A stretch of DNA of 27,774 nucleotides from Erysipelotrichaceae bacterium (GTDB lineage Bacteria; Bacillota_I; Bacilli_A; Erysipelotrichales; Erysipelotrichaceae). Below the pieces are notes generated by a model, which saw only the letters and a list, made by a program, of their open reading frames with translations, ran no database searches and was not told the DNA's origin. Of the stretch, positions 4,905 to 27,171 are shown in pieces. The stretch lies in assembly GCA_963586925.1 (NCBI GenBank), contig CAVAAT010000026.1, positions 1 through 27,774 of the forward strand, written 5' to 3'. The translations under genes were made by a program, and so were the position numbers. Numbering within the stretch: position 1 is the first letter of the stretch; each line of letters begins with the position of its first letter.

Positions 4905-4930
4905 ACAATAATAAACCTCTGTTCATTATT

Positions 4931-4969: not shown

Positions 4970-5001
4970 TATTATTTAATGTGATTTTGCCCATAATTAA
5001 A

Positions 5002-5021: not shown

Positions 5022-5029
5022 CAAATAAC

Positions 5030-6269: not shown

Positions 6270-6400
6270 TCTTTGACACCCCAAAAATAGAAAAAATCAT
6301 AAAAGTCTCTAGAATCACTTAAAAATGGCCGTAAAAATTAAATTACGCTTTTTATTTGTCAAATTTTATGTATTTATATGTAGTAATTTGTAGCAATTCG

Positions 6401-6409
6401 TGATATAAT
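6401..6409 (+). promoter_or_regulatory. Extended -10 promoter element (TGATATAAT) for the transposase gene
   Basis: TGATATAAT lies at 6401-6409, about 20 nt upstream of the transposase ATG and just upstream of the GAGGGGGG SD (6418-6425). Confidence 0.4.
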
Positions 6410-6430
6410 GGTTGCGTGAGGGGGGATACC

Positions 6431-8170: not shown

Positions 8171-8203
8171 ATAAATTACTACACAAATGTACAAAACGAA
8201 AAA

Positions 8204-8247: not shown

Positions 8248-8267
8248 ACCTTTCAAACTGTCAAAGA

Positions 8268-8412: not shown

Positions 8413-8491
8413 CCAAAAGATTATTTATAAATATTTTCAAGAAAAATGTGCATTAGTTAAACAATGACCTTTAGTTTTAAACTTTATTTCA

Positions 8492-10849
8492 TCATTCATC
8501 TTTACCACCTTTTATTTGTTGGTATGCTATTTTTAGTCTTGTTGTCTTTTGCGGCTTATCAATATTATTCTTATCAGCAATCCTACAAGCAATTTCGTAA
8601 GCACTAATTGCTTCTTGGTATAAATTAAGTTCAATTAAATGATCAGTAAATTGTTCCAACACTCTTATAACTAAAACTGTACACTTTTCTCCACTTTCCA
8701 AGTATTTACAATAGTCATCAAACAACTTTATAGCATCATCTTTAGCATTATGTACAGTTAAAAATTCTAACAAATAATAAACTGTGTTGTAACCATATTC
8801 ACTCTCCAATTTATCAATAACATTTAAGATCTCATAACTCAAATAATTTCTATAGAAGTTGCTATTATTTTTGAAATCATTTGGTATACTTGCATTGTTT
8901 TTTAATTTATTTCTATTTGAATAAAAGAACCTAATATCCTTGAGCGCACCAATGTGATCATAACAAATCCGCTCCAACATTTTTTCATAATAATTCGACT
9001 TTACTGGGTCATCACTAAAAGCTAAACACCTATCATAGATTCGATACAAGCAATTACAGCTATCTAATAAACACAAAACTATTTTTATCTCATCATTAGA
9101 TAATTTTCTTTCTTTATCTTGTATGAACCAACTATAAATAAAACTTCCCCAATAACCAAAAGCCCCCAAAGAAGAATCTATGAGACTACTAATCATCTTC
9201 CATTTGGCGCCAAAATTCTGCCACTCCTCATCATCTTCAGCCCATTCTTTTTTGTGAATTTCAAATTCTTTCTTAAATTGACAGTATGATGCGATACCTA
9301 ATTTATCATTATTATAATCAAACCATTTTAATACGTAATCTAGCTCTTTTTCACAATAATCAAGTGCCTTTTTATCATCTCTCTTAATACTTGTCCAGTA
9401 TTCAGCAATATTATTTAATAAAATAGCATATTTTGGAAGATATTGGGCAGCTCTTTCATCATTTAGTAAACTTTCATACACTTTTATATCTTGGTCAAAC
9501 TTATCAACATTAGGCATTCTTTCTAAAGTTTCTTCGTTATTTTTACTATGGAATTTAGCACTCAAATAATTTACTTCTAATTTTTTTTCTATCGCATCTT
9601 TTCGAGTCATATCAATAGAATCATCTAACGATTTTAGAGTTTCAAAAAACTTAATCCAATCGCTAGTTCTATACATATTAGCCAATTTTAGTTTTTCGAT
9701 AAACTCATCAGCATGTTTCATATATTCATCGTTATTGACAAGATCTATTTGATAAGGCAAAGCATATTCTAAAAATTGATTTTCCTCCAAAATAGTTCTC
9801 ATTAATTCCTTTGATTGAAGATATCCATCATCAGCAGATCTCTTTAAACATTCAAAGCCTTTTCTGAAGTTTTTTTCAACATCAATGCCATTTAAATAAG
9901 CTAATGCTATGTAAAACAAATGCTCAGGATCATTATTTTCCTTAATACCTTTACTAAACAATAATTTTTTTAAATCTTCGCTGATTTCAACATAGTTATT
10001 CTTATCAATTGGATCTTTGATTCCAATAAAATTATGTTTCAATTCGTCCTTATTTGTTTTGTCAACCTCTATTGGTAATACTTCTTTACCTCTTTTTACT
10101 GCTTCAGGGTATTCAATCCTAATAACATAATTACCTAGACCATCATTGTACTCATTAATATTAGGGGTAACTAATAAAGCCATTAGCTTGCTTTTATCAA
10201 TATAGTGACTAATCTCATCATTGTAATCCTCACCTGGAGTCAAAAAATCATCCCACCAAATTGCTACATCTCTCATTGACTCATCATAATGAATAGTAGA
10301 CATTATTTCATTAACAAATCTTCTATCCTTTTTCCTATATGACAAAAAGATGTATGCATCAAAAGCATCTTGAACCTTTTTATATGTATTTTCATCAACT
10401 AGTACAGATTGTAAATAAATTTTTAGTTTATCTCTAAATGTTGACATATTCTTAGTTCTATCCAATATCTGCTTTTTAGACAATTCTTCTGGCAAATTAT
10501 CCCAATCTAAAGTCCCATCAACTAATATTGGTAATACTCTTGCACCTTGTTTTAAAGCAGTAGAAAAATCTATATTCCTTGCTCTTGAAGGCTTTTTTAA
10601 ATAACTATCAACAGTTATAGGAAATACAAATAACGAAAACTGTGATAGATCAGCAAAATAATCTAATTCTTCTTCACTACTAGGATAGAAATTCTGATCC
10701 CCTAAATAATAAATAGAACAATCAGCAATTTCTGATATTTCATCCGTGATCACTTCAAACCATTTGTTAAAATCATCAGGATGGCAAGAAAAGTAAACTT
10801 TATTTATTCCTTTTCCTTTTATTTTATACTTTACATTATTATCATTCAT
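8492..10849 (-). CDS. Tandem TIR-domain protein with a SEL1-like repeat and a long helical (TPR-like) C-terminal region; last gene of the operon
   Basis: 785 aa. TIR-like domain 1 is about aa 17-112 (KVYFSCHPDD ... RNIDFSTALKQGARVLPILV). TIR domain 2 is about aa 165-262 (YIFLSYRKKDRRFV ... VAIWWDDFLTPGEDYNDEI ... LMALLVTPN ... YVIRIEYPEAVKRGKEVLPIEV). A SEL1-like unit is at about aa 309-345 (LFYIALAYLNGIDVEKNFRKGFECLKRSADDGY). The remaining ~430 aa are helix-rich. A GAAGGGA SD precedes it, and it starts 2 nt after the upstream gene's stop. Confidence 0.8.
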   Translation of the reverse strand: MNDNNVKYKIKGKGINKVYFSCHPDDFNKWFEVITDEISEIADCSIYYLGDQNFYPSSEEELDYFADLSQFSLFVFPITVDSYLKKPSRARNIDFSTALKQGARVLPILVDGTLDWDNLPEELSKKQILDRTKNMSTFRDKLKIYLQSVLVDENTYKKVQDAFDAYIFLSYRKKDRRFVNEIMSTIHYDESMRDVAIWWDDFLTPGEDYNDEISHYIDKSKLMALLVTPNINEYNDGLGNYVIRIEYPEAVKRGKEVLPIEVDKTNKDELKHNFIGIKDPIDKNNYVEISEDLKKLLFSKGIKENNDPEHLFYIALAYLNGIDVEKNFRKGFECLKRSADDGYLQSKELMRTILEENQFLEYALPYQIDLVNNDEYMKHADEFIEKLKLANMYRTSDWIKFFETLKSLDDSIDMTRKDAIEKKLEVNYLSAKFHSKNNEETLERMPNVDKFDQDIKVYESLLNDERAAQYLPKYAILLNNIAEYWTSIKRDDKKALDYCEKELDYVLKWFDYNNDKLGIASYCQFKKEFEIHKKEWAEDDEEWQNFGAKWKMISSLIDSSLGAFGYWGSFIYSWFIQDKERKLSNDEIKIVLCLLDSCNCLYRIYDRCLAFSDDPVKSNYYEKMLERICYDHIGALKDIRFFYSNRNKLKNNASIPNDFKNNSNFYRNYLSYEILNVIDKLESEYGYNTVYYLLEFLTVHNAKDDAIKLFDDYCKYLESGEKCTVLVIRVLEQFTDHLIELNLYQEAISAYEIACRIADKNNIDKPQKTTRLKIAYQQIKGGKDE

Positions 10850-10851
10850 TT

Positions 10852-12024
10852 TTATTGTCCCTTCAATAATTCTCTTATCTTTTTTAACTGCACAGTATCT
10901 TTATATTGTTCTTCTTTACTCAAAGTTTCAAAAGGTACTATACAATTATGTTTTCTATTTTCTTTATCAGTTATTGGACTATAACTCCAATTATGGTAAA
11001 GATAAAATCTACACCATTGGATATGTTCTAATTCAGCAAATACATCAATACTATATTTTTCAAATTCTTCGTCAGTTACTTGCACATAAGGTTTTCCAGA
11101 TAGTTTTTCTGCTAGTTTTATGATCGTACACTCAAAGAAATCTACCACCGAAATATTGCTGCCTTTATATAATGGAGAAAGAGCATTCCATTGTTGTTGA
11201 GCATTCCTTTTATCTTCTTTATTATATGCTGAAGAAAAATTATGATTGACCGCTTTAGCTTTTGCTAAAGCATCCATGTTGAACACATTTTCTGTGGTAC
11301 ATACTCCTTCAACATAATTGAATACCGACAAGTTTAATTTGTTTACTTTTCCATAGCAATGATCTGCAAATAATTCAACATTAACATCACTATCTGAAAA
11401 TAAGACAATATTCCCTTTAGATATACAACTCATTATCGTATATAGTTTTTCTTGTAAGCCAAAGAATAAGACTATATCCGCATTTTCTAACAAATCCTTA
11501 TTTTCAAGACAACACTCATCATGATAGATGATATTTAATTCTTTAGATTTATCATGAGACAGATTGAATAATCTATGATCACCAAACAAATGATAATTTA
11601 CGACTTGTTTAGCATCATATATATTGACCATTAATCCCTCATATAATACTTGTTGAGCTAATCTATTAAATCCCACTAGAACAACATTCATTTTCTCTTT
11701 AACTTTCCCGTTTTCAAAAGCAAGATTTATAAGTGAATGCTCTTTCCAAAACTTTCTAGCAATAATCATTTCTATCGAAAAGAAATTAACATTTTCTAAT
11801 ATAGCATTTTGAAAAAATGAATGTTTGAGAAATACTTCTTTATCTTTGAACTCTTTTCTATGTTCATAGTAGAAATTCATATTTTCTTTATCATCAGCCA
11901 ATAAAACATATTTGTCAGCTTTGCTTAAATCAGATTTTTCAATATAAATAGTCCCTTTATAATGATCGATAAATTGCTTACTATAAATATTATCCCCATA
12001 TACAAATACTGACTCTTTTTCCAT
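10852..12024 (-). CDS. Rossmann-like (degenerate KTN/TrkA-N-like) protein with a C-terminal RyR (ryanodine-receptor repeat) domain
   Basis: 390 aa. The C-terminus AELEHIQWCRFYLYHNWSYSPITDKENRKHNCIVPFETLSKEEQYKDT fits the RyR-domain pattern (H..W ... GW.YG ... K.HP.LVP%..L...EK..D). It is preceded by LAKAKAVNHNF ... WNALSPLYKGSNISVVDFFECTIIKL, which resembles the linker seen in bacterial TrkA-N+RyR proteins. The mid-region VVLVGFNRLAQQVL looks like a Rossmann beta1-loop with a degenerate glycine motif. A strong AAGGAGG SD precedes it. Confidence 0.65.
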   Translation of the reverse strand: MEKESVFVYGDNIYSKQFIDHYKGTIYIEKSDLSKADKYVLLADDKENMNFYYEHRKEFKDKEVFLKHSFFQNAILENVNFFSIEMIIARKFWKEHSLINLAFENGKVKEKMNVVLVGFNRLAQQVLYEGLMVNIYDAKQVVNYHLFGDHRLFNLSHDKSKELNIIYHDECCLENKDLLENADIVLFFGLQEKLYTIMSCISKGNIVLFSDSDVNVELFADHCYGKVNKLNLSVFNYVEGVCTTENVFNMDALAKAKAVNHNFSSAYNKEDKRNAQQQWNALSPLYKGSNISVVDFFECTIIKLAEKLSGKPYVQVTDEEFEKYSIDVFAELEHIQWCRFYLYHNWSYSPITDKENRKHNCIVPFETLSKEEQYKDTVQLKKIRELLKGQ

Positions 12025-12052
12025 AGTTCCTTGCCTCCTTACCTACCTAAAA

Positions 12053-12115
12053 TTAAAGGCAGCACGTTGATATACATAACCTTAATTTTTGGTTTAGTCT
12101 ATTAAACATCATCAT
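12053..12115 (-). CDS. Possible 20-codon small ORF (MMMFNRLNQKLRLCISTCCL) in the only sizeable intergenic gap of the operon
   Basis: A GAGGGAGG SD (12120-12127) sits 4-10 nt upstream of three consecutive ATGs (12107-12115). TAA lies at 12053-12055. There is no comparative support, so this could be a leader peptide or spurious. Confidence 0.2.
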   Translation of the reverse strand: MMMFNRLNQKLRLCISTCCL

Positions 12116-12142
12116 GCTACCTCCCTCATTTATTGTGTTTAA

Positions 12143-12709
12143 CTAATATAATCCGCCAGAGATTGCTTCTACCAACTCATTACAACATTCTGATAGATCG
12201 ATTTTCCATTCTCCATCAACTTTTATCAAGTTAAGTTCCACTAAATAATCAACATCATCTGTTTTCTTTCTCTGTTCTGTAACTAACTTTTTCAGTTCTC
12301 TTTCTATCTGTTTTTCTGATTTACCATCGAGACTCATTGTCAATATTTTAGTAGGAACTAAAACCACCAAATTTGACACTATAACCTCCCAATTTTCCGT
12401 CGTGATTTTTACTTTAACTGTAGCATAATCACCATTCACTTCTTTATCAACCACTTTATATTCGAAATCCATGATATATTCAGAAATTATGTCTCCAATA
12501 TAATCTAGTGATTCACATTCTTCAATAATGTCAATAAAATCATGAATAACTGAATCTTGAGGATCTCCAAAGTACAATTTGTCTAAGATCTCTTCATCAC
12601 ATTTTCTGATCCCTTTGAATAAAGCTTTTGTAGTCCCATTAACAGAACTGCACCCTGTTAAACTAAAAACCATACAGACACTTAATAACAAGCATATTAA
12701 TTTTTTCAT
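12143..12709 (-). CDS. Small secreted lipoprotein (NTF2-like / DUF4878-like fold suspected)
   Basis: Signal peptide plus lipobox: MKKLICLLLSVCMVFSLTGC. The mature part contains GDYATVKVKITTENWEV ... LIKVDGEWKIDL, which is typical of small NTF2-like lipoproteins. An AAGGAGA SD precedes it, 5 nt after the upstream gene. Confidence 0.75.
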   Translation of the reverse strand: MKKLICLLLSVCMVFSLTGCSSVNGTTKALFKGIRKCDEEILDKLYFGDPQDSVIHDFIDIIEECESLDYIGDIISEYIMDFEYKVVDKEVNGDYATVKVKITTENWEVIVSNLVVLVPTKILTMSLDGKSEKQIERELKKLVTEQRKKTDDVDYLVELNLIKVDGEWKIDLSECCNELVEAISGGLY

Positions 12710-12714
12710 ATTAT

Positions 12715-13677
12715 TTATTCTCCTTCTATTTCACCACAATAATCAACTGGCAGTGGCCTCGTGGCATTTTTAAATGGACTATCCTTCAAAATAGATTGAT
12801 TCTTAATAAGATAAGCCGTTTTAAATCTCTTATAGCCAGTAGATCTTTCACTATTTTCCCCAGACATCAATATATCTTGTTTTACTGCCATTTCTTTATC
12901 ACTGACCATAAAGAAGTATTGTACCGTTGACCATAATGCCATACCATCATATAACTCATTAACAAGTTTTCCATAGCTCTTTTTGATTTCCTTTTTATTC
13001 CAATTAAGATATTGCCATATATGAGTTAATTGATATACCGTTTCAATCAACGCTTGAGTTCTAGGGTAATCCTTTTCAAAGTATAATAAGAAATGATTTT
13101 TTTGCCACAACACCAATGAATTGATCTTATGGTCTTTTGTATTTGAAGGTATCAATTGTTTTCCAGCTTTTTTTAATAAAGTGCTTTTATCAATTACCTC
13201 AATCCTTATATCTCCATTAATACTAATGCCAAAAAAGTTTTCCATATTTCTTTTAGCATCTTCTAACATAAGTCGATAATCTTTTTCTTCAATAAGTGAT
13301 GATCTATCACAATTAGTACACTTTGTCCTGCCATCTACAGTTAGTACAAAATCATTTCCCATTATATCTTCACTACAAAAATCACACTTTCTAGTTTGAC
13401 TATCATAAGGTTTAAAAACCTCTTTAATCCTATTTGCAGAGATCTTGTTTTTTCTTGCTTGCTTCAAAGGATTATTACCATACCCATTAGCGACAAGAAA
13501 ATTGCGTGTTTCTAGTGGAACTATCCTTTTTGGAAGATCCGATTGACCATAATGAATATATGCTTCTCTAAAAGCTGAAATTCCATTCACATCGGTAAAC
13601 CCCCCCACAGAAAATGATTTTTCTGATACTTTTTCCTCATTTTGTTCTTCTTTTTTATCATTCTGTTCCATCATCAC
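12715..13677 (-). CDS. Zinc-ribbon protein with a DA1-like peptidase-type module whose HExxH is degenerate (YQLTH)
   Basis: 320 aa. A CxxC ... CxxC zinc ribbon is present (C98-D-F-C101 ... C120-T-N-C123). Downstream, FEKDYPRTQALIETVYQLTHIWQYLNW ... LYDGMALW aligns from memory with the DA1-like ...lp..l.g.ilAHEmmHaW ... EGfc motif, with His-to-Tyr and Glu-to-Gln changes. The track start at 13677 is GTG. ATG 13674 or 13671 after the GAGGTGA SD is equally likely. The gene overlaps the upstream gene's end by about 14-20 nt. Confidence 0.55.
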   Translation of the reverse strand: MMMEQNDKKEEQNEEKVSEKSFSVGGFTDVNGISAFREAYIHYGQSDLPKRIVPLETRNFLVANGYGNNPLKQARKNKISANRIKEVFKPYDSQTRKCDFCSEDIMGNDFVLTVDGRTKCTNCDRSSLIEEKDYRLMLEDAKRNMENFFGISINGDIRIEVIDKSTLLKKAGKQLIPSNTKDHKINSLVLWQKNHFLLYFEKDYPRTQALIETVYQLTHIWQYLNWNKKEIKKSYGKLVNELYDGMALWSTVQYFFMVSDKEMAVKQDILMSGENSERSTGYKRFKTAYLIKNQSILKDSPFKNATRPLPVDYCGEIEGE

Positions 13678-16600
13678 TCACCTCATTGTCATCCACCACG
13701 CTATTTAATTCATCATCTTTGACCTGTTCAATTGAATTTGTTTCATTTTCCATTTCTTTAGAAGTCGAATGTTCTTCGTTTTCATCAATGAATTCTTTAT
13801 CACTATTTAAAGGTTGCTCTTTTTCTGTCTTACCAGTTTCTTGCTTGCTCCTATTTTGTTCAGATTGTTCTTGAACTGAATCATTTATCTTTTCTATATC
13901 TTGCTTTGATGGATCTATTTCTTCGCTAGATTCTGCATTATCTTTCTTCGATTGTTTTTCCTTAAATTTATCAAAGAAACTCTTTTTCTTTGGTTGTTTA
14001 GGTCGAGAAATGTTTACTGGTTCAATTAAAGTTTCTTCCTCTAGATCAATATTGCCATTTTCAGCCTTATCTTTCATTTCAAGATACCAATCAAGATAAT
14101 CGCAAATGATCTCTAAAATACGATCAATATTTCTTTCAACTGTTTCTATTAATCCAATGTCCAATTGACTATCTTCTACAATATAGATAGCATTCTCTTT
14201 CAGAATATCTTTTTGTTCACTTACATCATAAATCATATAAGTCAATGGTCCATTTTCCTCGTAAGGCACGAAAGTTAGAGACTCATAATCTTCATCTGTT
14301 TGAAAGGAAGTTAAGGCAACAATATAAGCACTATCTTGAGCAAACATTGTTCTAAAGATTTCATTCATCAATAAACAGATCGTGTATGAAATATTAGCAT
14401 TTTCTTTATATTCTGCTGATTGGTCAAATGACAAAGTCAATATACGTTTATTAACATAATGCCTCTCAGGTACAGACTCATTATCTGTATCAAATAAGAC
14501 TAAAGTTGATTCATTAATCTTGTTATAATGTTTCATCTTGTAATAACCTTGAGTCTTAACAGTAAAATCAGCATATTCACTTCCTAAAGTAATCTGATTG
14601 ATCTGTTTACTGTCTTTTCCTTTAGTCGACTTTGCAAATGATTCAAAGCCATAATCTCTTATCTGACGATACTCATAACGATCATCAATATGATCTGCTG
14701 ATCTTCTTAAGATTATTTCGTTCTGGGCAGATAATCTAACCATTTGATAATATTTGCCACAACGTGTAATAAACTGGCCAGGCAAAGTCTTTTGGAATAC
14801 TTGCGACACTAATTCAGTTCCTAAATAATTACCTTTTTCATATTCATCCTCTGCGACATAAGAAGCCAAATGCAAATCTGAAACAAATGCTTCAATGAAG
14901 TCTTTATTATCAATTGAATACAGATTATCATTCTTACCTTCTTCAAAGTTATATTTTTGACTGATCGATATTACATCAATATCAAATTCTTTACCATTCT
15001 TTTCTATTATTCTATTAGATACTTCTTCTACAGCTTTCTCATATTCAGAAGGCAAGTCCTTTTCTATAGCAGTACTAGTAAAGCACATGTAAATCTCATA
15101 CCATAATTGTTTCTTGATGTTTATAGCCTTTATACCAATAAGAGAGAATTCATCAACTATTTCTTTTTCGTAAACAGGATGATCGCTCATCATAAAGATC
15201 ATTGATAAAGCGAAGTTCCTATTTGTCTTAGCATAATCAGCTACGAAATTAGGAATAGCTTTTGGATCACTTAAAAATATATTGAAATTCCAAGCCATAT
15301 AATCCCTTAACAAATAATCAGGACAAATAACATTGACAAATCCTTGAGAAATACTTCTAGTAGAAAAATCCCTAACTAGTTCAAACAAGTTATAAACTTC
15401 ATCTTCTACTGTCAGATAACTTTCATCACTAATAGGGGCATCCCAATAGCCATTAGAAGTAACAAACTTCTTATCAATCAATCCTTGTTCACTCGGTAAA
15501 TCAGCATAAACTGCTAAGTCATGGTAGTATTGTTTAACGATCCACTTCATATCTACTACAGGGAACATCTCTCCCCCATACCATTTAGTCTGTGGTATCT
15601 TATTTTTAAGAGCACTAAATGATAATTCCGTACCAATACCTAAATATCTAGAAATATTAGCTATCATCTTATGGTGCATATATTCATCAGTACTACGCCA
15701 ACACATATATGAAACTGTACCTTTATGTTTATTTGTGGCAGATACTTTGCTGATAGAATTTAATAAGATGTGCGACATGGCATCAACAAGGCCATCACAA
15801 TTTTTCTCCGTCAAGCAATATACAAGTTTCTTTTCTCTATCTTTCCTTCTGCATTTTTTAATGATAAGATTCAAACCAATTTGAGCTGTTGTTATTAACT
15901 TACTTGGCTCAATAATAAAAACAAATTCCACATCTTCAAAAAATTCTTCATTATCTTGCATCAATTGTAAATCTGTTACATCAGATCTATTGATGATACC
16001 GATATTACCATCAAAACCTTCTTCTTTCAGATTACCAATTTTCCAAAAATAAGGCAGATTAGTCACCGATTTAACTCCTTCTTCCAACCATCTTACGATG
16101 TCATCTTCAATACCGTGTCTTCCTAATACAACCAACACCTTTTTATTTGCTAATAGGCTTTGCTGCATAGGATAAAAAGCATAAGGAATTAAATCATGAT
16201 AGAAAGGATCATTGAATAAAATACTTTTTCCTTGTAATAATTCTAATGATGATTGAAAATAATTTTGATCTAATGATAAACCTTTTTGCACTTTCTTTTT
16301 GAAAAACTTAGCAAACATCCTAATTTTATGATCATTACTTTTCTCATATTTTCTAAGTAATTGTTCTGCTGTTAATCCCTGATAAGAAGTATTTGAACTA
16401 GTTCCTTCACTTACCACATTATCTTTAAATAAAGAGTTCAATACTTTTCTCATCAATGAATAATTAACTGAGACTTTAACACCATTTTCGTCATCGTAAA
16501 CTTCTTTTAAGAATTCTTTCTTAGTCAAGCCATCTATAAAGAAGAACATTTCTCCTAACATAATGATCGAATAAGCTGGAATAAACACATAACTAAGTGA

Positions 16601-17137: not shown

Positions 17138-19172
17138 ACATTTCCTCCATCTGCAGAGTAACTTTATCTACAAATTCCGATGGTATTTCAACATGATTAT
17201 CTTCTTGTAGATAACTGATAGTTGAAGTACCCATTATCATCTTCATTTCGTAATGATATTTGATCTTTTTAGTGTAATCATAGCCAAAAGGATCTTTATC
17301 ACCTTTAACTTTGATCTTATCTAAAGGACTTAGATAATGATCATATTCACTATAAATCTCGCTTAGAACTTCATCCAAATCCTTCTTATGTTTACTTAAA
17401 ATAAATAACAAATTAGTTGCTTTCTTACCAAAATAGTTGATTATACCATTTAGCCTCATGATAGAGGCATTTTTGGAAAGATAACGACTTGCCAAGATTA
17501 AGCTATCATAGATAGCACTAACTATATTACTGATAGTCTTGTTAAACTTTTTAAATAGTCTTATAAGTAAGTACTTGAATACAAGTAAAGTAACAAATAA
17601 CACAACAACAAATATAATGATAGCTACTAGTGCTAATGATATATATGACCGAACATCTTCTCCATCAATAAAAGCATTTAATGGATAAACACTTACTCCA
17701 AATGAAAACAATAAAATCAGAATAAGAGAGAAAATGATCGTTGGTCTTTTATTCATTCTTTGATCAATCCTAGCTCTGATCTCATTATCAGCCTCATCCA
17801 TTTTCTTACTATAGTCATCGAAGTCTAAAATATCTTGAGGATCAATCTCAGATAATTGTTCTTCTACACTGATGAGTTTATATTCAACATCTTCACATTG
17901 ATATTCTGTAAAATCAGCAATCCTTTCATCATAATAATCCTTTTTTACATAGAAATTATCTTTAACTTTTGTTTTTACTGCTCTTTGAGGTTGCCTCATA
18001 TACTTAATGAACTCTTTATGAATGGAATCAGATTGTTCATTCCAATATTCTTCTTCACTTTCTGGACAATCTTGCGATAAACCAATACGGTCATGTTCAC
18101 AATACAAACCATCCTCACCATATTCTTTATCAATCTCACAAACGATAGTCTCATCTTTTTCAAAAAGAGTCTTAAAATCATTTCTTTTTAGATGAGTTGC
18201 CTTTTTGTTTAACTCTTGTTTTTCTAACGATTCAATACTATTTTTAGCTGATAATAAATCAGAAACAAAATCATCACATTTTTTTAACAAGACATCTTCC
18301 TTTAGTTTTATATCCACTTTGTAGACCTTGTAAGGTTTAATAGCATCATTAGGATATTCATTAGTCGCTAAGATATTGATCAAAGTACAGAAAGGCAGAT
18401 TATTTTTACTGATCCTAATTTTTTCATGATTATATTCAACATCAAATAATAGGAATCTAACATTATGAGGATATAAGTTATTCTCGACAAAGTTTAAATA
18501 CTCATCTTTATGTATTTCACTATGCCAAATACCAATCTCCTCACAGTAAACTGCTCTTTCCGACAATACTGTAACATTCTTAGGCAAGTTTTCGAACAAA
18601 CAATCATTATTTTGAGCGATAATCTCTTGTGTAATTTGACTACCATATTGCACTCTAAAACTATTAGCACTTACTGCTAATCTAGTTGGATCATCTTCCT
18701 TATCCTTTAACTCTTCTCTTATTTCATTATCAGCTAATTCTTCTTCGACTCCAAAAAAATTTACATAAGGCCTCATGAGCCAATTGGTCAATCTGACCAA
18801 CGGCTCATTTGACACTTCATGAATGATTTGTTTGGCATTGTTGTAATAATTGATCACATCGTCAATAGTTTTCAAATCTTCCAATTTTTTTTCAATTTGA
18901 TCATGCATGCTATATAGATCAAAAGGGTTGCCATTGACACATTCAGTAAGAGCGATATTGGCAATGCCGAAAGTATTCAATATTAGCACACGCCAATCTC
19001 TCTTATCAGCGATAGTCTCTCTTAGCTGGGGTACTGCCATATCAATATTTGTTCCTTCCTTATTCCAAGACAAGAAAACAACTTCTTCACTAGAAAATGA
19101 ACTTAGAAAAGCGTTATATTTAGTTTTACAATCATCGATAATCTTCTTATCGCAGATAACTACTGTAAACAT
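17121..19172 (-). CDS. Membrane protein of unknown function (683 aa)
   Basis: It is a long ORF in the operon frame. Two TM helices lie in the C-terminal third (TIIFSLILILLFSFGVSVYPL; ISLALVAIIIFVVVLFVTLLVF). The ~470-aa N-terminal soluble region has no recognisable catalytic motif. The SD is weak (AAAAGAG), and the gene starts 18 nt after the tubulin-like gene's stop. Confidence 0.75.
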   Translation of the reverse strand: MFTVVICDKKIIDDCKTKYNAFLSSFSSEEVVFLSWNKEGTNIDMAVPQLRETIADKRDWRVLILNTFGIANIALTECVNGNPFDLYSMHDQIEKKLEDLKTIDDVINYYNNAKQIIHEVSNEPLVRLTNWLMRPYVNFFGVEEELADNEIREELKDKEDDPTRLAVSANSFRVQYGSQITQEIIAQNNDCLFENLPKNVTVLSERAVYCEEIGIWHSEIHKDEYLNFVENNLYPHNVRFLLFDVEYNHEKIRISKNNLPFCTLINILATNEYPNDAIKPYKVYKVDIKLKEDVLLKKCDDFVSDLLSAKNSIESLEKQELNKKATHLKRNDFKTLFEKDETIVCEIDKEYGEDGLYCEHDRIGLSQDCPESEEEYWNEQSDSIHKEFIKYMRQPQRAVKTKVKDNFYVKKDYYDERIADFTEYQCEDVEYKLISVEEQLSEIDPQDILDFDDYSKKMDEADNEIRARIDQRMNKRPTIIFSLILILLFSFGVSVYPLNAFIDGEDVRSYISLALVAIIIFVVVLFVTLLVFKYLLIRLFKKFNKTISNIVSAIYDSLILASRYLSKNASIMRLNGIINYFGKKATNLLFILSKHKKDLDEVLSEIYSEYDHYLSPLDKIKVKGDKDPFGYDYTKKIKYHYEMKMIMGTSTISYLQEDNHVEIPSEFVDKVTLQMEEMYGQYY

Positions 19173-19190
19173 AGTAACACTCTTTTCTTA

Positions 19191-22100
19191 CTACTGTGAT
19201 TCCTTAACTAAGTTATCAAAATATGCAACATCAGCATTCTTTCTAGATAAATATGATCTAATGTTATCTTTAATAGCATCCAAAGTATCCCAGCCAGCAT
19301 TTTTCAAGATTTCTACTTTTTCATAATTATCTTGAAGAATCTTATATTGCTCCCCTGATACTTTAACCCACAGAACTTCAGAATCGTTTTTCTTTTCAAC
19401 AGTAGAGATCTCTCTCTTTAACACATACATTAATGCCCATACCATTGTTTTTAATTCATTAGAATCCTTACTCTTTGTAGGTAATGAACCGTAATATAGC
19501 ATTGGTAGTTCAAACACTGACATCTGTTCTGTATCATTAGCATCTTCAACTATTTCACTTCTCTTCATATGTGTCATTTCTGTAAAGAATTTGGTACTAT
19601 CATATTTAGTAGGCTTTGCTGCATCTTTTGAACGGAAACCTGAGGCAATATTATGAATGTCATTAACACGTTTTCTATCAAAATATAATGACTCTAATAC
19701 TTCATATAACTTGTTGCAAGTATTACCATCAGAAGTTAATAGGAAATCATTCTTATTATCGCCATCATAACAATAAGCCTTATCATTAACATTGTGTATT
19801 GATTTAGGCATTAACTTAACTGCTTTATAAATGAAGCTATAGAAGAATGCTTCGTGAATATGACCCATTAACATCTTTTGGAAATCAAGGTTCATTTCTG
19901 GCATTACCGAAATCGAATTCCATTTTTTATCAATATGTGGAGTAATAACTGGATTTAATGTTGAATCTGGCCCAATATCTTCCATATATTTCTGATAATT
20001 TTTGAAATATTCACCTGAATCTTCTGAATATAATCTTCCATCAGATTCTGGAGTAACATATTTTAAGGCACTAATATCATCAGGAGTTAGACCATAATTT
20101 GATCTAAAACAATGGATCTCATATTTAGAAATAGAAGAAGTTTTATTTTCCTTATCTAAATAATCTTTGAAATCTGAAATATTGATGTTAGGATCATCAT
20201 CGTTAACACCTGCACCATAAGACATTTCAGAAACTTCTCTATCTTCTTTGATGTTAGCAATTGAAAGCATAGGAGCAGCTAATGTCCTTAGTTCTTTTAA
20301 GCTATCATTGATATACTGATTTCTAATATTTCTATCATTAGCATTCTTAATGATAACTTCTTTTTGATCTTCATCTTTTTCTTCAGAAGTTTTGATCATT
20401 TGATTTATCTCAAATTCATATTTTAAACCATGTAAGATATCAAGATTGATCTTATCATCACAGCTATTAGAAACTTCCTTCTTATAGTCTTCTATTATAA
20501 CATCGTTAAAAATATCTTTATATGCTTCTAACAGTGAAGGATTTCCATCTTTCTTTTTAGATATCTCAGCATTCTCTTTAAATGCTGTAAATAAATCGGC
20601 AAACATCCGCGAATTATCAGCTGTACTAGTCTGTAGTTCAACAACTTTATTTAACATCTTTTCGCTCGAAAGTATATTTTTAACACAATCTCCTTTTTTA
20701 TATTCAATCTCGCCAACCAATTCTTTTTTTCTCTTCTCAATTACCGGGATTTTGCTTTCAAATGAATTATAAAACTTCTCAATTTCTTTGATCATAGGAT
20801 TGACATATTTTAATCCTTCTTCACATACTTTTCTCTTTACTATTGCTTCAGATCTTTCGTTGACTACTTTAAACAATTTTTCTAATAGTTTTTGTGCACG
20901 ATTACTACAATTATGATCCACTAATTTAACCCAGAAATTAGCATTTTCACATTCACGCACCATCTGACTAAGATTTATCTCCTTTTGACCATTTCCCTTA
21001 ACTTGAAATGATTTGGTTTTATTTTTATCATCATCTTTTCCTGCATAAATTTCATTGTACTTTTTTATATACTCATCATCGCCAGAAGATGTGCTATTCA
21101 CTTCATCATCCATTAAATTTCTTAATTTATAAAGAACTGCACGAAGTGCATTTGGATGCATAATGTTATCCGAACCTATAGAAACCAAATTCTCAAATGA
21201 ATAATTTCCTATTTCCAAATTTTGTGAGAATGTACCAGTGGAAGCCATTGCCTTTTTAATAAAGTTTTTTGACAACTCTTTGATCTTTTCATTCTTTTGA
21301 TTCATTGCATGAATTTCTTCAATTCTCTTCATTTGATTGCTAATTGGAATCTTCTTTGTTTTAACGTTATTAATATCATCGCTAGTCAGTTGAGAATCTT
21401 GTAGAATTAATGACATTAATTCCTTCTTCAAATTGATAATAAATTGCTCGGCAATCTTCTCAACTTTGTTTGAAAAAATATCATTTTCCGATTGATCATC
21501 CACGTATTTTCCGTATTTTAAACTAATACTTTTCTGAATCTCTACTCCAAAATCTGAAGTAGACGAGTCTAATCCACTGATATAAACTTCACTTAACTTT
21601 GGCTGCTCATTTCTACTGCCATTTTCATACTCTTTTAATTGCTGTTCATATTCTTTATCCCAAGCAACCCACGTATTCTTAACTAACTCTTCATTATCAA
21701 CATTTTTAACATTTCTAACACCTAAAATATTCTTTTCAGCCCAGCAATAAGCTATATAGTCCCGAATCTGTTCATAAGGATACCTTAAAACAGCTGCCCC
21801 AACTGAGCCAAATCTACTTCTTCCTAATAACTTAGGGTCAATGAATGTTTTAATGACGTTATCTTCTTGAGAAGATGCCTTTTTAGATAAAATACTGATG
21901 TTCTGTTCATAGATACATTGAGATACTGTCTTTTCATATTGAGACAAAGATTTCATAGTCTTTTGATTGTTATCATTCTTCTCAATCAAAAAGCAAAAAT
22001 CAAATGGTAAGTTGTCAATATTTCTATTTGTGCCATCAGTATTAGGAACACTTATACTTAAACCTTTGTATCTTTTTAATTCATCTGTAGTTTCAAAAAA

Positions 22101-22784
22101 ACCCGATCCTTTCATCATGAAAGCATTGATCTCTCTTAACGTAGCATAGCCATTTCTTTCTTGAGAGGCCATTTCACTTTCTGATTTTATCTTGGTCCTC
22201 ATTACTCCTGGCATAATAAAGAAACCTCGAATAATAGATGAAGATTCAGGATAATTTCTATTGATATAGTCTCTGATCAACATTGATACCTCTAAAGCAA
22301 TGCCTGAACCAGTACCACCTGTTGCAGTAGAAGCAATGACCACTTTAATAGCTCTTTGATGATCATTCCCATCTTTCAAATACAACTCGTTTATTGCATC
22401 ATATAAAGATTTAATTTTATTTTGTTTGATAGTTGCATTTAAAGCTAATCTAGATATTGCCCTAACTTGACCCGCACCCTCAGAAACTGTTTTATAATCT
22501 AAGATTCTATTATTAGGGAACCAATTATTTTTTGCTTCCTTATCATAATTCAAGTACTCTTTTATCTTTCTTGTTGATGATGTTTGAACAGCAGTTATTG
22601 GCGTTTCGCTATTTAGTCTAGATATATCATTAGTATCAGTATCCAAAACAACAAAACGCATATTGTTCTTATCATCATTCTTACATAAATCTGCTACACC
22701 TTTGATAATTCTGCCACCAATTCCTCCAACTCCAACAAATAATGTTGGAACTATCTTATTTGACTGTAACTTTTCCTTTTCCAT
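19191..22784 (-). CDS. Giant tubulin/FtsZ-superfamily GTPase-like protein (Tubulin_2-type N-terminal domain plus ~950-aa uncharacterised extension)
   Basis: 1197 aa. The N-terminal ~230 aa carry the FtsZ/tubulin nucleotide-binding loops in the correct order: T1 LFVGVGGIGGRII (aa 15-27), VVLDTD (aa 45-50), T3 SEGAGQVRAISRLA (aa 101-114), and T4 signature ATGGTGSG (aa 154-161). GGTGSG was verified at nt 22302-22319. A GGAG SD precedes it. Confidence 0.8.
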   Translation of the reverse strand: MEKEKLQSNKIVPTLFVGVGGIGGRIIKGVADLCKNDDKNNMRFVVLDTDTNDISRLNSETPITAVQTSSTRKIKEYLNYDKEAKNNWFPNNRILDYKTVSEGAGQVRAISRLALNATIKQNKIKSLYDAINELYLKDGNDHQRAIKVVIASTATGGTGSGIALEVSMLIRDYINRNYPESSSIIRGFFIMPGVMRTKIKSESEMASQERNGYATLREINAFMMKGSGFFETTDELKRYKGLSISVPNTDGTNRNIDNLPFDFCFLIEKNDNNQKTMKSLSQYEKTVSQCIYEQNISILSKKASSQEDNVIKTFIDPKLLGRSRFGSVGAAVLRYPYEQIRDYIAYCWAEKNILGVRNVKNVDNEELVKNTWVAWDKEYEQQLKEYENGSRNEQPKLSEVYISGLDSSTSDFGVEIQKSISLKYGKYVDDQSENDIFSNKVEKIAEQFIINLKKELMSLILQDSQLTSDDINNVKTKKIPISNQMKRIEEIHAMNQKNEKIKELSKNFIKKAMASTGTFSQNLEIGNYSFENLVSIGSDNIMHPNALRAVLYKLRNLMDDEVNSTSSGDDEYIKKYNEIYAGKDDDKNKTKSFQVKGNGQKEINLSQMVRECENANFWVKLVDHNCSNRAQKLLEKLFKVVNERSEAIVKRKVCEEGLKYVNPMIKEIEKFYNSFESKIPVIEKRKKELVGEIEYKKGDCVKNILSSEKMLNKVVELQTSTADNSRMFADLFTAFKENAEISKKKDGNPSLLEAYKDIFNDVIIEDYKKEVSNSCDDKINLDILHGLKYEFEINQMIKTSEEKDEDQKEVIIKNANDRNIRNQYINDSLKELRTLAAPMLSIANIKEDREVSEMSYGAGVNDDDPNINISDFKDYLDKENKTSSISKYEIHCFRSNYGLTPDDISALKYVTPESDGRLYSEDSGEYFKNYQKYMEDIGPDSTLNPVITPHIDKKWNSISVMPEMNLDFQKMLMGHIHEAFFYSFIYKAVKLMPKSIHNVNDKAYCYDGDNKNDFLLTSDGNTCNKLYEVLESLYFDRKRVNDIHNIASGFRSKDAAKPTKYDSTKFFTEMTHMKRSEIVEDANDTEQMSVFELPMLYYGSLPTKSKDSNELKTMVWALMYVLKREISTVEKKNDSEVLWVKVSGEQYKILQDNYEKVEILKNAGWDTLDAIKDNIRSYLSRKNADVAYFDNLVKESQ

Positions 22785-22805
22785 TTTTTTATCTCCATTT
22801 CTTTA

Positions 22806-25043
22806 TTATCTTTCGTATTTTATTGTTCCTTTATGTCTACCCTTATTATCCTTAAAGATAACCTCGAATCCATCTCCAATTTCAAATGATGCCTCATTAA
22901 TCTTTGTACCATCACTATTTACTAATCCAGAAACTCTTTTAACAAATCTTTCCCCATCGAATATCACTTCGGTAATATCCGATGCAACATTTATATTGAA
23001 TATCTTTGCTTTAGCATAAGAAGTCTTACGTTCACTAAATTTAGTAATTTTCTCAGCGTAACATGTTATTTTTCCGCTTTGATAAGGGAATAGGTCCATG
23101 ATCTGTCCTCTCTTGAAATTGTATCTTCCATATCCGTTTCTGTCATCCTCCATACCCAAAAATAAAGGGAATGCTTTCATATTCATCAATAATAATATTA
23201 ACAACAATAGTAACAGTAATAACAATCCTAATGCCGCCCACCTTGCCCATTTAGGATAGAACTGTATAGTGAACTCTTCACTATCACCATGTCCATAAAG
23301 GACTTGGCCATCACCATTATGTAAATAATTTGCTTTAGCATATATAGTGTTCTTACCTTTTGTTATTTCATCAGCATTTACTTCTTTACCTAAATATATA
23401 TTTACCTTTGATTCGCCATATACTTTTTCAATTGTATAAGGTATATCTTTATCAAAACTTATATTTAATTCTGTTCCTTCTAGTTGATAATCCGTCAAAC
23501 TCTTTCCATCTATTGTTAGAGTTGCTACAAATGGTTTCCAAGAATCTTTTTTACTTAGTAAGAACCAGTTATCTTCTTGTTCAGTATCTAAATGAACATC
23601 AACAGTTGGATAGCTTATTGTGATCGTATAGTCTTCTTTTCTATTCTCTGTTGTTATTTGATAATCATTTAAATAAGTAGCTTTAACTTTCAAGAAAATT
23701 GAGTTATTTGGTTCTAATGTAACTCTATCTCCATTACTTACTTCATGGAATATGCCATCATCAAATTCATATCCACCAACAAATGCCACAGGCTTTAATA
23801 ACGCCGAATTCGTAACATCTTCACCAGTTACAGAATCGATCAAGTAATAATTCAAGATGTAATCTCCTGGATATAGTTTCTCATTTCTTCCAGCTACATC
23901 TAATACTGTCCCATCCTCATCCGAAAAGGTTAACATAATATCGATATTTGGTGTATAGAAGAATAGTATCGACTCTGCATCTTCATAAGAAATCGTATAA
24001 GTTCCTGCATCACATTCACCAAATGTCACAACTTGCCCTGACAAAGTGGAATCAACTGGTGCATCAGGATAGTTAGCACTATTGATCGTACTATATTTGA
24101 TCTGCCCACTATCTGATAATATCTCGACATCTTTGCCTTCTTTATCTTTCATACCATTGATCTTAGCATTTTCACCTTGAACGAATACGATGAGATTACT
24201 CATGGAAATATCTAAAGTTAGTTGATCACCATTTAAGCGATCACTAGGCAATTGATCCCTTTGAAACATCATGTTACATATTTCAATGATATCTAACTTT
24301 AAATTTTCACTTGAATTAGACTTTTTAGTGTAGAAATTATCTGATGCATAACTACTTAAGTCAGCTGCTTCACCAATACCGAGATATACAACTTTAATAT
24401 CATCGCTTGCCAATGTTGCCAACTTTTGTCCTAATTCGCTAGTACCTAAATCATCAAATTCCCCATCAGTCAGTACTAACAACCATTTTTGTGGAGCAGT
24501 AGATGTAGTAAGACTACTGTATGCCTTTTCAACTGTACTATATGGTGTGCTCCAAGCCCTTATTGTAAATAAGTTATGTATCTTTTCAATATCACTCATA
24601 CTGCTTATCAAAATTGGATCAGTACTTCCAGCACTTTCCTCAGTAGGCTTACTACCATCAGTAGTAACTGCCCACATTGGATAAATCCTTAATTCATCAC
24701 CAGGTACCGTTCCTCTTTGCTCGTAATTTAACATTGATGCAAATATTTCCATTGCATACTTTGCACGACACCAACCTTGAGCATTGTAATCAGAATACAT
24801 TGAACCCGAATTATCAAAGACAACCGCAATGTCATAATTTTCCACATAATGAACCAATTCTTTAGAATAATGAGTTTCCTCATATTGACCTTGACTATCT
24901 TTATTAGAGTCAACATCAACTATGGTATTATTATCCACTATGGTTTGATCATCTATTTCTGTTTTCTTCTTACAACCACCAAAAGACATAAGCAAGAAAA
25001 CAGCTAATAGAATAATGAGTAATTTCTTTATACGTATCCTCAT
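22806..25043 (-). CDS. Lipoprotein-anchored, single-pass membrane vWA-domain protein (extracytoplasmic vWA plus beta-rich region, TM helix, 120-aa cytoplasmic tail)
   Basis: 745 aa. The signal peptide and lipobox are LLAVFLLMSFGGC. The vWA domain has MIDAS DNSGS (aa 77-81, verified at nt 24801-24815), later WSTPYS and LLVLTDGEFDD. A long beta-rich region follows. The poly-Leu TM helix is WAALGLLLLLLLLLILLLM (about aa 600-625), followed by a 120-aa C-terminal tail. A GGGGGAG SD precedes it. Confidence 0.85.
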   Translation of the reverse strand: MRIRIKKLLIILLAVFLLMSFGGCKKKTEIDDQTIVDNNTIVDVDSNKDSQGQYEETHYSKELVHYVENYDIAVVFDNSGSMYSDYNAQGWCRAKYAMEIFASMLNYEQRGTVPGDELRIYPMWAVTTDGSKPTEESAGSTDPILISSMSDIEKIHNLFTIRAWSTPYSTVEKAYSSLTTSTAPQKWLLVLTDGEFDDLGTSELGQKLATLASDDIKVVYLGIGEAADLSSYASDNFYTKKSNSSENLKLDIIEICNMMFQRDQLPSDRLNGDQLTLDISMSNLIVFVQGENAKINGMKDKEGKDVEILSDSGQIKYSTINSANYPDAPVDSTLSGQVVTFGECDAGTYTISYEDAESILFFYTPNIDIMLTFSDEDGTVLDVAGRNEKLYPGDYILNYYLIDSVTGEDVTNSALLKPVAFVGGYEFDDGIFHEVSNGDRVTLEPNNSIFLKVKATYLNDYQITTENRKEDYTITISYPTVDVHLDTEQEDNWFLLSKKDSWKPFVATLTIDGKSLTDYQLEGTELNISFDKDIPYTIEKVYGESKVNIYLGKEVNADEITKGKNTIYAKANYLHNGDGQVLYGHGDSEEFTIQFYPKWARWAALGLLLLLLLLLILLLMNMKAFPLFLGMEDDRNGYGRYNFKRGQIMDLFPYQSGKITCYAEKITKFSERKTSYAKAKIFNINVASDITEVIFDGERFVKRVSGLVNSDGTKINEASFEIGDGFEVIFKDNKGRHKGTIKYER

Positions 25044-25118: not shown

Positions 25119-25216
25119 TCTAACAAGTCGTATGCTTCTTTCATACTTTTATAAGACAATCTAATAAGCCCTTCTATCGCAAGTTTTTCATCCGACCATT
25201 CAGAATATCTTTGCTA
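25103..25216 (-). other. In-frame, protein-level-conserved continuation of the upstream ORF beyond two tandem TAG codons
   Basis: After ...WPYAGAT the frame reads TAG (25217-25219), TAG (25214-25216), then QRYSEWSDEKLAIEGLIRLSYKSMKEAYDLLDCLNI and TAA (25103-25105). This is 13/25 identical to the C-terminal tail of the decayed paralog (AEEKELVNLLIEVSCKSYKTAYDLL). Confidence 0.6.
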
Positions 25217-27145: not shown

Positions 27146-27171
27146 GGTGCTCTAGGTATACTTTAGTCACC
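27146..27171. repeat. 26-bp site B (GGTGCTCTAGGTATACTTTAGTCACC), overlapping the recombinase stop codon
   Basis: It is a direct repeat of site A, and similarity extends about 36 bp including flanks. It spans the last codons and the stop of the recombinase gene (stop at 27163-27165). A weaker third copy lies around 27064-27085 (TTTAGCATACTTTTCC). Confidence 0.45.

Follow-up and report, generated by a model that had tools for sequence, protein, structure and literature searches.

A vWA and tubulin-like GTPase core with exchangeable TIR and RyR modules in gut Clostridia: a candidate envelope-spanning conflict system

Introduction

What might a bacterium do with a single run of genes for a surface-anchored von Willebrand factor A (vWA) protein, a giant tubulin-like GTPase, large membrane proteins, and RyR and TIR domain proteins? 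Such a run lies in a stretch of 27,774 nucleotides (nt) from an Erysipelotrichaceae bacterium (assembly GCA_963586925.1, contig CAVAAT010000026.1, positions 1 to 27,774), the whole of which is called the window below; its eight genes are named g1 to g8 in the direction of transcription. The locus is best explained as an elaboration, specific to gut Clostridia, of the vWA-FtsZl1 (Tubulin_2) systems, built on the first four genes. It is also a credible candidate immune system, with a defence function that is plausible and that, as a prediction, is given about an even chance.

Parts of this picture have been published. Makarova & Koonin (2010; Biol Direct 5:33, PMC2875224) defined FtsZl1, its operonic link to vWA proteins with a metal-ion-dependent adhesion site (MIDAS), and their lineage-specific membrane partners. 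Kaur, Burroughs, Iyer & Aravind (2020; eLife 9:e52696, PMC7159879) assigned tubulin and vWA genes from Firmicutes and Actinobacteria to ‘GAP1-N2 GTPase-centric’ conflict systems, and proposed the regulated assembly of cytoskeleton-like complexes in biological conflict. The vWA plus FtsZl1 operons of the one paper and the systems of the other contradict the view, taken in an initial annotation of the window from its sequence alone, that no tubulin-superfamily GTPase was known in conflict systems. What is new here includes the strict four-gene core, the origin of g5, the folds of g2 and g4 and the recurrence of TIR/RyR cassettes; the vWA and FtsZl1 pairing (2010) and the tubulin and vWA conflict systems (2020) are already in print.

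Results

An eight-gene operon with a four-gene core

Eight co-directional open reading frames (ORFs) occupy the minus strand from 8492 to 25043 (Table 1), at exactly the coordinates first annotated. Their successive spacings, from g1 to g8, are 21, 18, -17, -20, 5, 118 and 2 nt, which reproduces the tight packing described for them, with overlaps of 17 and 20 nt and a sole large gap of 118 nt. That gap lies upstream of g7 and holds a strong AAGGAGG Shine-Dalgarno sequence; a terminator hairpin was looked for in it and none was found, and promoter and terminator scans were in general uninformative in this AT-rich DNA. The compact minus-strand spacing and the terminator-free spacer support the assignment of g1 to g8 to one operon, transcribed as the single unit that had been proposed. 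Gene order is retained at 86% nucleotide identity in a close relative (locus L088) and at 36-57% protein identity in many species, so the arrangement is far beyond chance.

Homologues of the tubulin-like protein g2 number 1163, with 35-57% identity over their full length, and come mostly from uncultured gut and rumen Clostridia. A scan of species-representative genomes with the single g2 sequence gave no matches, and an alignment of g4 was used as the anchor instead. This gave 108 species, all represented by gut metagenome-assembled genomes (MAGs), from Acutalibacteraceae, Oscillospiraceae, Ruminococcus and Lachnospiraceae. Among 1.84 billion proteins, the g4 family comprises 599 representative clusters. 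Wherever enough upstream sequence is available (67 of 67 loci), g1, g2 and g3 lie upstream of g4 on the same strand; g1 to g4 are orthologous across all sampled loci by BLAST, and g3 orthologues are present in 85 of the 87 loci overall. These comparisons indicate that g1 to g4 are a strict four-gene core and that the remaining genes are exchangeable accessories. The idea of a conserved multi-gene system, as opposed to a fortuitous adjacency, holds for g1 to g4, together with the domain encoded by g5, and fails for all eight genes jointly.

The accessory genes vary from locus to locus. Of 53 loci with at least 6 kb of downstream sequence available, 21 (40%) have an RyR gene, 17 (32%) a TIR gene and 14 both. 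Accessory domains across the loci comprise peptidases, transglutaminase, PrsW, ParA/MinD, FtsK-like, AAA+ and HD domains. In some species, genes of another kind directly follow g4: an EssC-like protein with FHA and FtsK/SpoIIIE ATPase domains, together with three ORFs of ~90 amino acids (aa) in a type VII secretion-like arrangement, in L016 (15625-20181 and downstream), and an FtsK-like protein of 1181 aa in L097 (4913-8455).

Table 1. Coordinates of the operon genes and of neighbouring features in the window.
Feature	Position	Strand	Description
g1	22806..25043	-	745 aa; lipoprotein-anchored extracellular vWA, beta-rich region; first core gene
g2	19191..22784	-	1197 aa; FtsZl1/Tubulin_2 GTPase
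g3	17121..19172	-	683 aa; core member
g4	13658..17137	-	1159 aa; five N-terminal transmembrane (TM) helices, cytoplasmic body like superfamily 2 (SF2) helicases (predicted), low-complexity acidic tail
g5	12715..13677	-	320 aa; Zn-ribbon and HExxH-type metallopeptidase-like domain with degenerate YQLTH
g6	12143..12709	-	188-aa small lipoprotein, lipobox LTGC
g7	10852..12024	-	390-aa soluble protein; ~300-aa uncharacterised N-terminal region, C-terminal RyR (R12-type) domain
g8	8492..10849	-	785 aa; tandem TIR, then Sel1/TPR-like helical repeats
up502	25217..26725	-	502-aa LRR_5 (BspA-type) protein with C-terminal HExxH (HEYVH); 173 nt upstream of g1
resolvase	27163..27774	-	small serine recombinase (resolvase/invertase type), Pfam Resolvase 1.3e-26
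IS4-type element	6366..8196	+	transposase 6416-8170, DDE_Tnp_1; 24-nt inverted repeats 6366-6389 and 8173-8196
dn330	5326..6318	-	N-terminally truncated up502 paralog, HEYTH motif

The vWA lipoprotein and the tubulin-like GTPase

The vWA, tubulin-like, RyR and TIR assignments made from the sequence are borne out by Pfam matches in g1, g2, g7 and g8, and the motifs picked out with them are all present: the MIDAS sequence DNSGS at residue 77 of g1, GGTGSG at residue 156 of g2, and Glu246 of the TIR protein. The predicted surface and membrane topology also stands, with lipoprotein signals in g1 and g6, a TM helix and tail in g1, and the five TM helices of g4.

The Pfam VWA match of g1 is weak to marginal (E=1.7e-4), and VWA or VWA_2 is matched by 10-15 of 29 g1 orthologues. 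The MIDAS residues D77, S79, S81, T166 and D193 are nevertheless invariant in these 29 proteins. The lipobox and MIDAS of g1 are followed by its TM helix (602-620) and a cytoplasmic tail of ~125 aa. Its homologues include the vWA protein that accompanies FtsZl1 in Bacillus (E=1e-31), and its profile gave no meaningful match among PDB sequences. In the Bacillus genome compared, the vWA-FtsZl1 pair stands by itself, the g3 and g4 families being absent.

The g2 protein matches Pfam Tubulin_2 with E=1.5e-54 and is built of a tubulin/FtsZ fold (~1-355), a long helical and coiled-coil region (~360-835) and an alpha/beta C-terminal domain, which in the AlphaFold2 (AF2) model is alpha-rich with some strands. 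The model has a mean local confidence score (pLDDT) of 85 and a predicted template-modelling score (pTM) of 0.76. In Foldseek searches, its first ~350 residues match CetZ2, TubZ, FtsZ and tubulins at probability 1.0 over 340-375 columns, and the modelled N-terminus is accordingly read as a complete tubulin/FtsZ fold. The T1 (GxGGxG) and T4 (GGTGSG) loops are invariant, GGTGSG in 52 sequences. An acidic residue follows the core helix, at position 231, in 51 of 52 sequences; its assignment to T7 is by position only. Taken together, these features are compatible with polymerisation-coupled GTP hydrolysis but are not proof of it.

The membrane proteins and a detached peptidase-like domain

The g3 protein begins with a cytoplasmic domain of ~470 aa, continues with a two-TM hairpin at 478-531 and ends in a C-terminal region of ~150 aa; the hairpin means that it is not bitopic, as it had been annotated. 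Its profile matched no PDB sequence. Comparison by hhalign rejected it both as a cryptic second tubulin (probability 0.5% against g2) and as a relative of g4. Among 32 g3 orthologues the only Pfam matches are weak ones to the TM hairpin region (residues ~454-560), by DUF2207_C in seven and by DUF4231 in two. As DUF4231 is presumably related to the SLATT pore-forming two-TM effector domains, this hints weakly that g3, too, could act as an effector that perturbs membranes.

The g4 protein, set down at first as an orphan, has relatives at the level of fold. Its AF2 model is of moderate confidence (pLDDT 65), and Foldseek matches it to the MrfA DUF1998 helicase (6znp, E=7e-12) and then to Hel308, Ski2 and Brr2; its profile showed no sequence-level similarity to any PDB chain. 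Apart from g2 it is the most conserved core member, with 42-52% identity across loci and many invariant residues. The canonical SF2 ATPase motifs (Walker A GxGK[ST] and the DExH/D motif II) are absent from g4. In their places, judging by position, would stand ‘GRHG’ (in VLGRHG) for Walker A and ‘IIEPS’ for DExH, each conserved as such. Given a predicted SF2-helicase-like fold with such noncanonical sequences, g4 is best described as a putative membrane-anchored pseudo-helicase.

[quoted passage not shown] By BLAST it aligns to residues ~1130-1525 of longer g4 homologues; 67 loci encode the domain as part of g4, and six encode it separately. Long g4 forms carry the Zn-ribbon and HExxH domain, often followed by a transglutaminase core. 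The motif is an intact HELTH in all 66 motif-bearing relatives, and YQLTH is confined to the window and its close relatives L088 and L089. The HExxH-bearing protein encoded by up502, upstream of g1, was considered as a paralog of the g5 peptidase domain and rejected on comparison.

The TIR and RyR layer

The tandem TIR arrangement ascribed to g8 is seen as two separate domain matches, at residues 17-130 (independent E-value 8e-7) and 159-286 (3e-27), within a protein that Pfam matches to TIR_2 (4.5e-11) and Sel1. Residue E246, in the second domain, falls in the catalytic-Glu column; the corresponding residue of the first is Asp. More than 90% of core-linked TIR domains retain the catalytic Glu. 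The best matches to the profile of the linked TIRs are TIRs that consume NAD+ (Cat1, SARM1/TIR-1, AbTIR and plant TIRs), the Glu lining up with WCWDEL and WVHKEL. At least three TIR architectures are linked to the core, namely TIR-LRR_5, TIR-LRR_4 and tandem TIR-TPR/Sel1; their lack of relationship to one another implies repeated recruitment. The operon-linked TIR profile also matches (E=4e-8) an 824-aa ‘tetratricopeptide repeat protein’ of solved structure that begins with a TIR domain (PDB 9m0n / 9umd); of the architectures solved so far this one, TIR plus helical repeats, may come nearest to g8.

The RyR domain of g7 is recognised by Pfam (E=6e-8) and matches RyR repeats in the PDB (E=3e-10). 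Phage RyR/R12-domain proteins bind or hydrolyse the 2'/3' cyclic ADP-ribose (cADPR) of Thoeris by means of a His, a Trp at +3, a His at +25 and an Asp at +42 (PMC13232231; 10.64898/2026.06.04.730250). The tetrad H334-W337-H359-D376 of g7 has the +3/+25/+42 spacing of the phage proteins RyDEP and RyR Tad, and none of the 26 operon-linked RyR domains departs from this H-W-H-D tetrad.

Two RyR architectures precede TIR genes: the soluble g7 type and a commoner one, C0, with three TM helices, a Rossmann-like GMGxHG module and an RyR domain. The two families share the RyR domain only. A metagenome scan anchored on C0 gave 17 dereplicated clusters with adequate flanks. In five of these C0 follows the core, and all five have a TIR gene; three have TIR genes, including TIR-HD_3 fusions, without the core. 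The clusters that lack the core rule out C0 as a family exclusive to it, and since C0 is also found away from the core, RyR and TIR are separable from it. This distribution suggests a module that has repeatedly docked onto the core.

Proteins of 1000 aa flank the C0 genes in L097 (11778-14777), where the core is kept, and in L128 (1581-4574) and L130 (6842-9841), where it is lacking. Those of L097 and L130 are TIR_2 and HD_3 fusions; in L128 only HD_3 was detected by Pfam. Such TIR/HD proteins with C0 could form an undescribed stand-alone TIR/RyR module, and the C0-type protein, with its three TM helices and Rossmann-like module, could be a nucleotide-gated effector. In two species (L029, 17601-18467, and L021; family C17), a PrsW-family intramembrane metalloprotease is encoded between the RyR-domain and TIR genes. 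The small lipoprotein g6 has homologues in three surveyed loci only and is a lineage-restricted accessory gene.

Genomic location and mobility

The resolvase, insertion sequences (ISs) and paralogs around the operon had suggested an accessory island. These features are present in the window, and small serine recombinases are reported markers of defence loci (PMC13552941), but the resolvase and IS are limited to the lineage of the window: homologues of either are absent from the loci of 80 other species, which rules them out as family-wide markers. Nor is the operon at a fixed syntenic site: the gene upstream of g1 belongs to 60 families among 63 loci, and although six sampled relatives lie among housekeeping or carbohydrate-active enzyme (CAZyme) genes, a site is never shared between them. 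A resolvase-controlled, invertible promoter for phase variation was also considered and rejected, as only short and weak inverted repeats are present.

Few matches were found in mobile-element collections. The plasmid search gave two distant ones, both on large replicons, of which one is a 5.5-Mb ‘plasmid’. This circular record (L091; NZ_CP093325.1, Bacillus sp. N5-665 ‘plasmid p1’, PLSDB) holds a classical two-gene vWA-FtsZl1 pair and looks like a chromosome to which the plasmid label was mis-assigned. The phage search gave one unverified ‘phage’ contig without phage genes. In IMG/VR, one of 2.9 million contigs matched, and it is a prophage end abutting a locus without g1 and g2. In this contig (L173; IMGVR_UViG_3300029447_000476, 402-10005), the prophage end, with two large serine integrases, an endolysin and a holin, abuts g3 and g4/g5; the prophage may have inserted itself into the front half of the system or taken its place.

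Discussion

Relation to described systems

The closest described relatives are the vWA-FtsZl1 systems (Pfam Tubulin_2, PF13809). In both, a giant FtsZ-like 1 protein, comprising a tubulin-like GTPase, coiled coil and helical C-terminus, is encoded directly downstream of a MIDAS-intact membrane vWA protein, and lineage-specific membrane proteins follow, here g3 with two TM helices and g4 with five; g1 and g2 are homologous to the Bacillus pair. All the defining features are found: a GGGTG(S/T)G-type loop, the coiled coil with helical C-terminus, the adjacent MIDAS-vWA gene (21 nt away) and membrane partners. The OmpA, protein kinase and P-loop GTPase partners of those systems are, however, absent here, and the TIR, RyR and peptidase modules were unreported in 2010, ‘TIR’ not being a term in the supplementary files of that paper. 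The 2010 analysis found no elements beyond H5, whereas the AF2 model of g2 has a complete tubulin fold.

The GAP1-N2 systems resemble the locus in their occurrence in Firmicutes, their coiled-coil tubulin proteins, their extracellular TM-anchored vWA proteins, their membrane-proximal logic and their variable linked effectors. Unlike them, the locus has no GAP1, DO-GTPase or FNIII-repeat protein, as judged by Pfam over g1 to g8 and over 32 g3 and 29 g1 orthologues; the g3 orthologues gave no GAP1 or GTPase match. Pfam and NCBIfam scans of the window proteins likewise gave no GTPase family match, and motif inspection found no Walker A motif in any of the eight proteins. The Firmicutes version has two tubulin and two vWA genes, against one of each here, where the partners are a two-TM protein and a TM pseudo-helicase-peptidase, and TIR/RyR effectors are not listed for GAP1-N2. 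The locus therefore falls outside the GAP1-N2 definition, because it has no P-loop GTPase, GAP1 or FNIII and only one tubulin and one vWA gene. Its accessory domains do match the repertoire of the vWA/NTPase conflict systems in Kaur et al. (2020).

With Thoeris the likeness is one of logic only: a TIR with a catalytic Glu is encoded beside a protein whose domain type binds TIR-made cADPR isomers. The SLOG-SIR2, Macro-TM and caspase-type ThsA proteins are absent here, an RyR-domain protein taking the neighbouring position, and the TIR is in tandem and fused to Sel1/TPR repeats, the pair being embedded in a larger membrane operon. In the literature found, the only role given to RyR/R12 is that of an enzyme or sponge with which phages counter Thoeris. 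The RyDEP and RyR Tad proteins have the same Pfam domain (PF02026), with four ligand or catalytic residues at the spacing of g7. The proteins described here differ in being host-encoded and fused to a ~300-aa domain (g7) or to three TM helices and a Rossmann-like module (C0), and in being genetically linked to TIR genes instead of opposing TIR; their activity is putative. Similarly, g4 is predicted to share with MrfA, Hel308 and Ski2 a body of two RecA lobes and accessory domains, but differs from them in its five N-terminal TM helices and its lack of ATPase motifs.

Zorya and Kiwa are conceptually similar, being membrane complexes proposed to sense envelope perturbation and to signal to cytoplasmic effectors. 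They differ in composition, the components here being vWA, tubulin, pseudo-helicase, TIR and RyR proteins, and no homology to their PADLOC models was detected. The literature searched gave no description of the g3 or g4 families, of a link between TIR and FtsZl1, or of host-encoded RyR-TIR pairs.

Proposed function and alternatives

The operon structure, the orthology of its genes, the conservation statistics, the folds and the conserved catalytic and ligand residues allow a working model to be drawn. The core would be a membrane complex of the extracellular MIDAS-vWA protein g1, the GTPase g2, the two-TM protein g3 and the pseudo-helicase g4, and g7 and g8 would be its exchangeable output layer. 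The vWA ectodomain or the membrane components would register a cue from the envelope or from an invader, and this cue would nucleate or release GTP-dependent assembly of g2 on the g3/g4 membrane platform. Because TIR enzymes need higher-order oligomerisation, it is proposed that the g2 assembly would concentrate and activate the repeat-bearing TIR proteins. The active TIR domain, with its Glu246, might then consume NAD+, make a cADPR-type signal, or both, and the H-W-H-D pocket of the RyR domain might bind or hydrolyse that signal, as a receptor or as a governor. The outcome could be growth arrest or abortive infection.

In its general form, this model makes the locus an envelope-spanning vWA/tubulin-like sensor-scaffold that serves exchangeable effector modules in biological conflict, here a TIR NADase/cyclase and an RyR reader/governor; such a role is judged to be evenly balanced between right and wrong. 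A much more specific form would have a tubulin-superfamily GTPase as the signal-amplifying scaffold of an envelope-spanning immune sensor, in which ligand capture by vWA leads to filaments on the pseudo-helicase/peptidase platform and so to TIR activation, with a host RyR domain reading or resetting the cADPR-type product, that is, a prokaryotic TIR-cADPR-RyR axis. In full, this is rather unlikely.

Several observations weigh against a role in conflict. Some 60-70% of loci are without TIR or RyR genes, and in about 12 nothing co-directional follows g4, which argues that the core works without a TIR effector. In 9 of the 17 C0 clusters, the RyR membrane protein has neither core nor TIR gene beside it. 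The six sampled relatives lie in no recognisable defence islands, and collections of plasmids and phages are essentially devoid of the system. A comparison with PADLOC-DB v2.0.0 gave no match for g1 to g7, nor for representatives of the long g4 form or of families C0, C2 and C5, with generic TIR-level matches only (g8 matches ThsB weakly, at 2.9e-5). The core proteins thus match no PADLOC model, in keeping with the initial annotation, which had expected no complete known system there. No experimental work on any FtsZl1/Tubulin_2 system was found in the literature, and the original prediction for vWA-FtsZl1 was a membrane-remodelling machine (PMC2875224). Finally, the present copy may be partly decayed, because its g5 motif is degenerate and a ninth gene, for a TIR protein, has been lost beside an IS.

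The main rival explanation is that two systems with no link in function simply lie side by side. The core would then be an envelope or cytoskeletal machine outside immunity, for membrane remodelling, vesicle formation or cell-surface organisation, and the RyR-TIR genes a separate Thoeris-like cassette that tends to land beside it. A core that is complete and autonomous, without TIR or RyR genes, in most loci would suit such a machine, as would the housekeeping neighbourhoods of its relatives, the prediction of 2010 and the ancient Bacillus dyad of vWA and FtsZl1 only. The cassette, for its part, has RyR (C0) and TIR together without the core in L128, L130 and L143, and the 118-nt gap before g7 could hold a promoter of its own. 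That spacer is without a terminator, however, and at least three TIR architectures recur directly downstream of the core, on the same strand and in distant species, which would be far above chance for genes as rare as these. The TIR gene accompanies C0 in every one of the five dereplicated metagenome clusters in which C0 follows the core, the peptidase and transglutaminase domains within the core are ones that conflict systems typically have, and the genomic site is different in nearly every species. A pair of unconnected systems is doubtful, though it deserves to be taken seriously. Far less probable is an apparatus for secretion, DNA translocation or inter-bacterial competition, in which the helicase-like membrane protein, the surface vWA protein and a GTPase that forms filaments would carry macromolecules through the envelope, with the TIR/LRR proteins as delivered toxins or cargo. 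It would make sense of a helicase-like fold anchored in the membrane (g4), of the FtsK/SpoIIIE ATPases (L016, L097) and EccA-like AAA+ proteins encoded right after g4 in some loci, and of BspA-type LRR_5 repeats, which are common in surface and secreted proteins. But g4 is without Walker A and DExH, the FtsK-like genes are in few loci only, the TIR proteins inspected have no signal peptide or obvious secretion signal at their N termini, and no small partner resembling an immunity gene is consistently present.

It is also conceivable, if improbable, that the locus is a decaying remnant in this genome, the family perhaps being functional elsewhere and this copy partly inactivated. The mutation of HExxH to YQLTH in g5, the split between g4 and g5, the missing ninth gene with an IS nearby and a truncated up502 paralog, and the ISL3 and IS4 elements that flank the locus all point that way. 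Against this, all eight ORFs are intact, as are the catalytic and ligand residues of g1, g2, g7 and g8. The split and YQLTH are common to L088 and L089, at 86-88% identity, and all genes have remained open since divergence; both changes are thus older than the divergence from these relatives.

If the sensor-scaffold model is right, a tubulin homologue would for the first time be implicated in immunity, as distinct from division or DNA segregation. The clade already supplies the FtsZl1/Tubulin_2 family, described in 2010, with a defined four-protein core in more than 100 gut species, and the predicted TIR NADase/cyclase supplies a concrete, assayable output for the FtsZl1 machinery. The recurrent pairing of host RyR and TIR genes coincides with two 2026 preprints on phage RyR domains that bind or cleave TIR-made cADPR. 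Should the same be true of the host proteins, bacterial RyR domains would gain a function, Thoeris-like signalling would gain a new type of receptor or governor, and the long-debated connection between cADPR and RyR would have a prokaryotic test bed. If the locus does not act in defence, its core remains an uncharacterised envelope machine that is widespread among abundant gut Clostridia.

Close relatives and neighbouring genes

The loci L088 and L089 have 86-88% nucleotide identity to the window and are colinear with it from just upstream of g1 to 54 nt beyond the g8 stop (8438 in the L088 comparison). In L088, a ninth gene follows, for a 944-aa tandem-TIR paralog of g8, and then an up502-like gene. 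At the position of the ninth gene, the window has unrelated sequence and the IS, then the truncated dn330. The closest relative has two tandem-TIR genes and a small TIR gene upstream. As dn330 clusters with up502 and matches the up502-like gene of L088, it is taken to be the remnant of an IS-associated rearrangement.

Upstream of the operon, the resolvase is 94% identical, and in the same position, in the closest relative (L089), and an ISL3 transposase gene lies just beyond it; the IS4-type element is on the other flank of the operon. A 119-aa TIR protein takes the place of up502 when L089 (679-1828) is compared with the window (25160-27015), and the slot between the resolvase and g1 is a small variable cassette site beside a serine recombinase, in which up502 is possibly an accessory gene. 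Both up502 and dn330 share their LRR_5 part with TIR-LRR_5 proteins of other loci (the L088 copy is at 19578-20042), which suggests one repeat adaptor with interchangeable heads, either TIR or metallopeptidase-like.

At the far end of the window (218-4904, minus strand), Pfam identifies a TetR regulator, an ABC ATPase and a 1118-aa FtsX/MacB-type permease with a long coiled-coil insert. This set resembles a common type of module for efflux or peptide export, with no connection to the operon.

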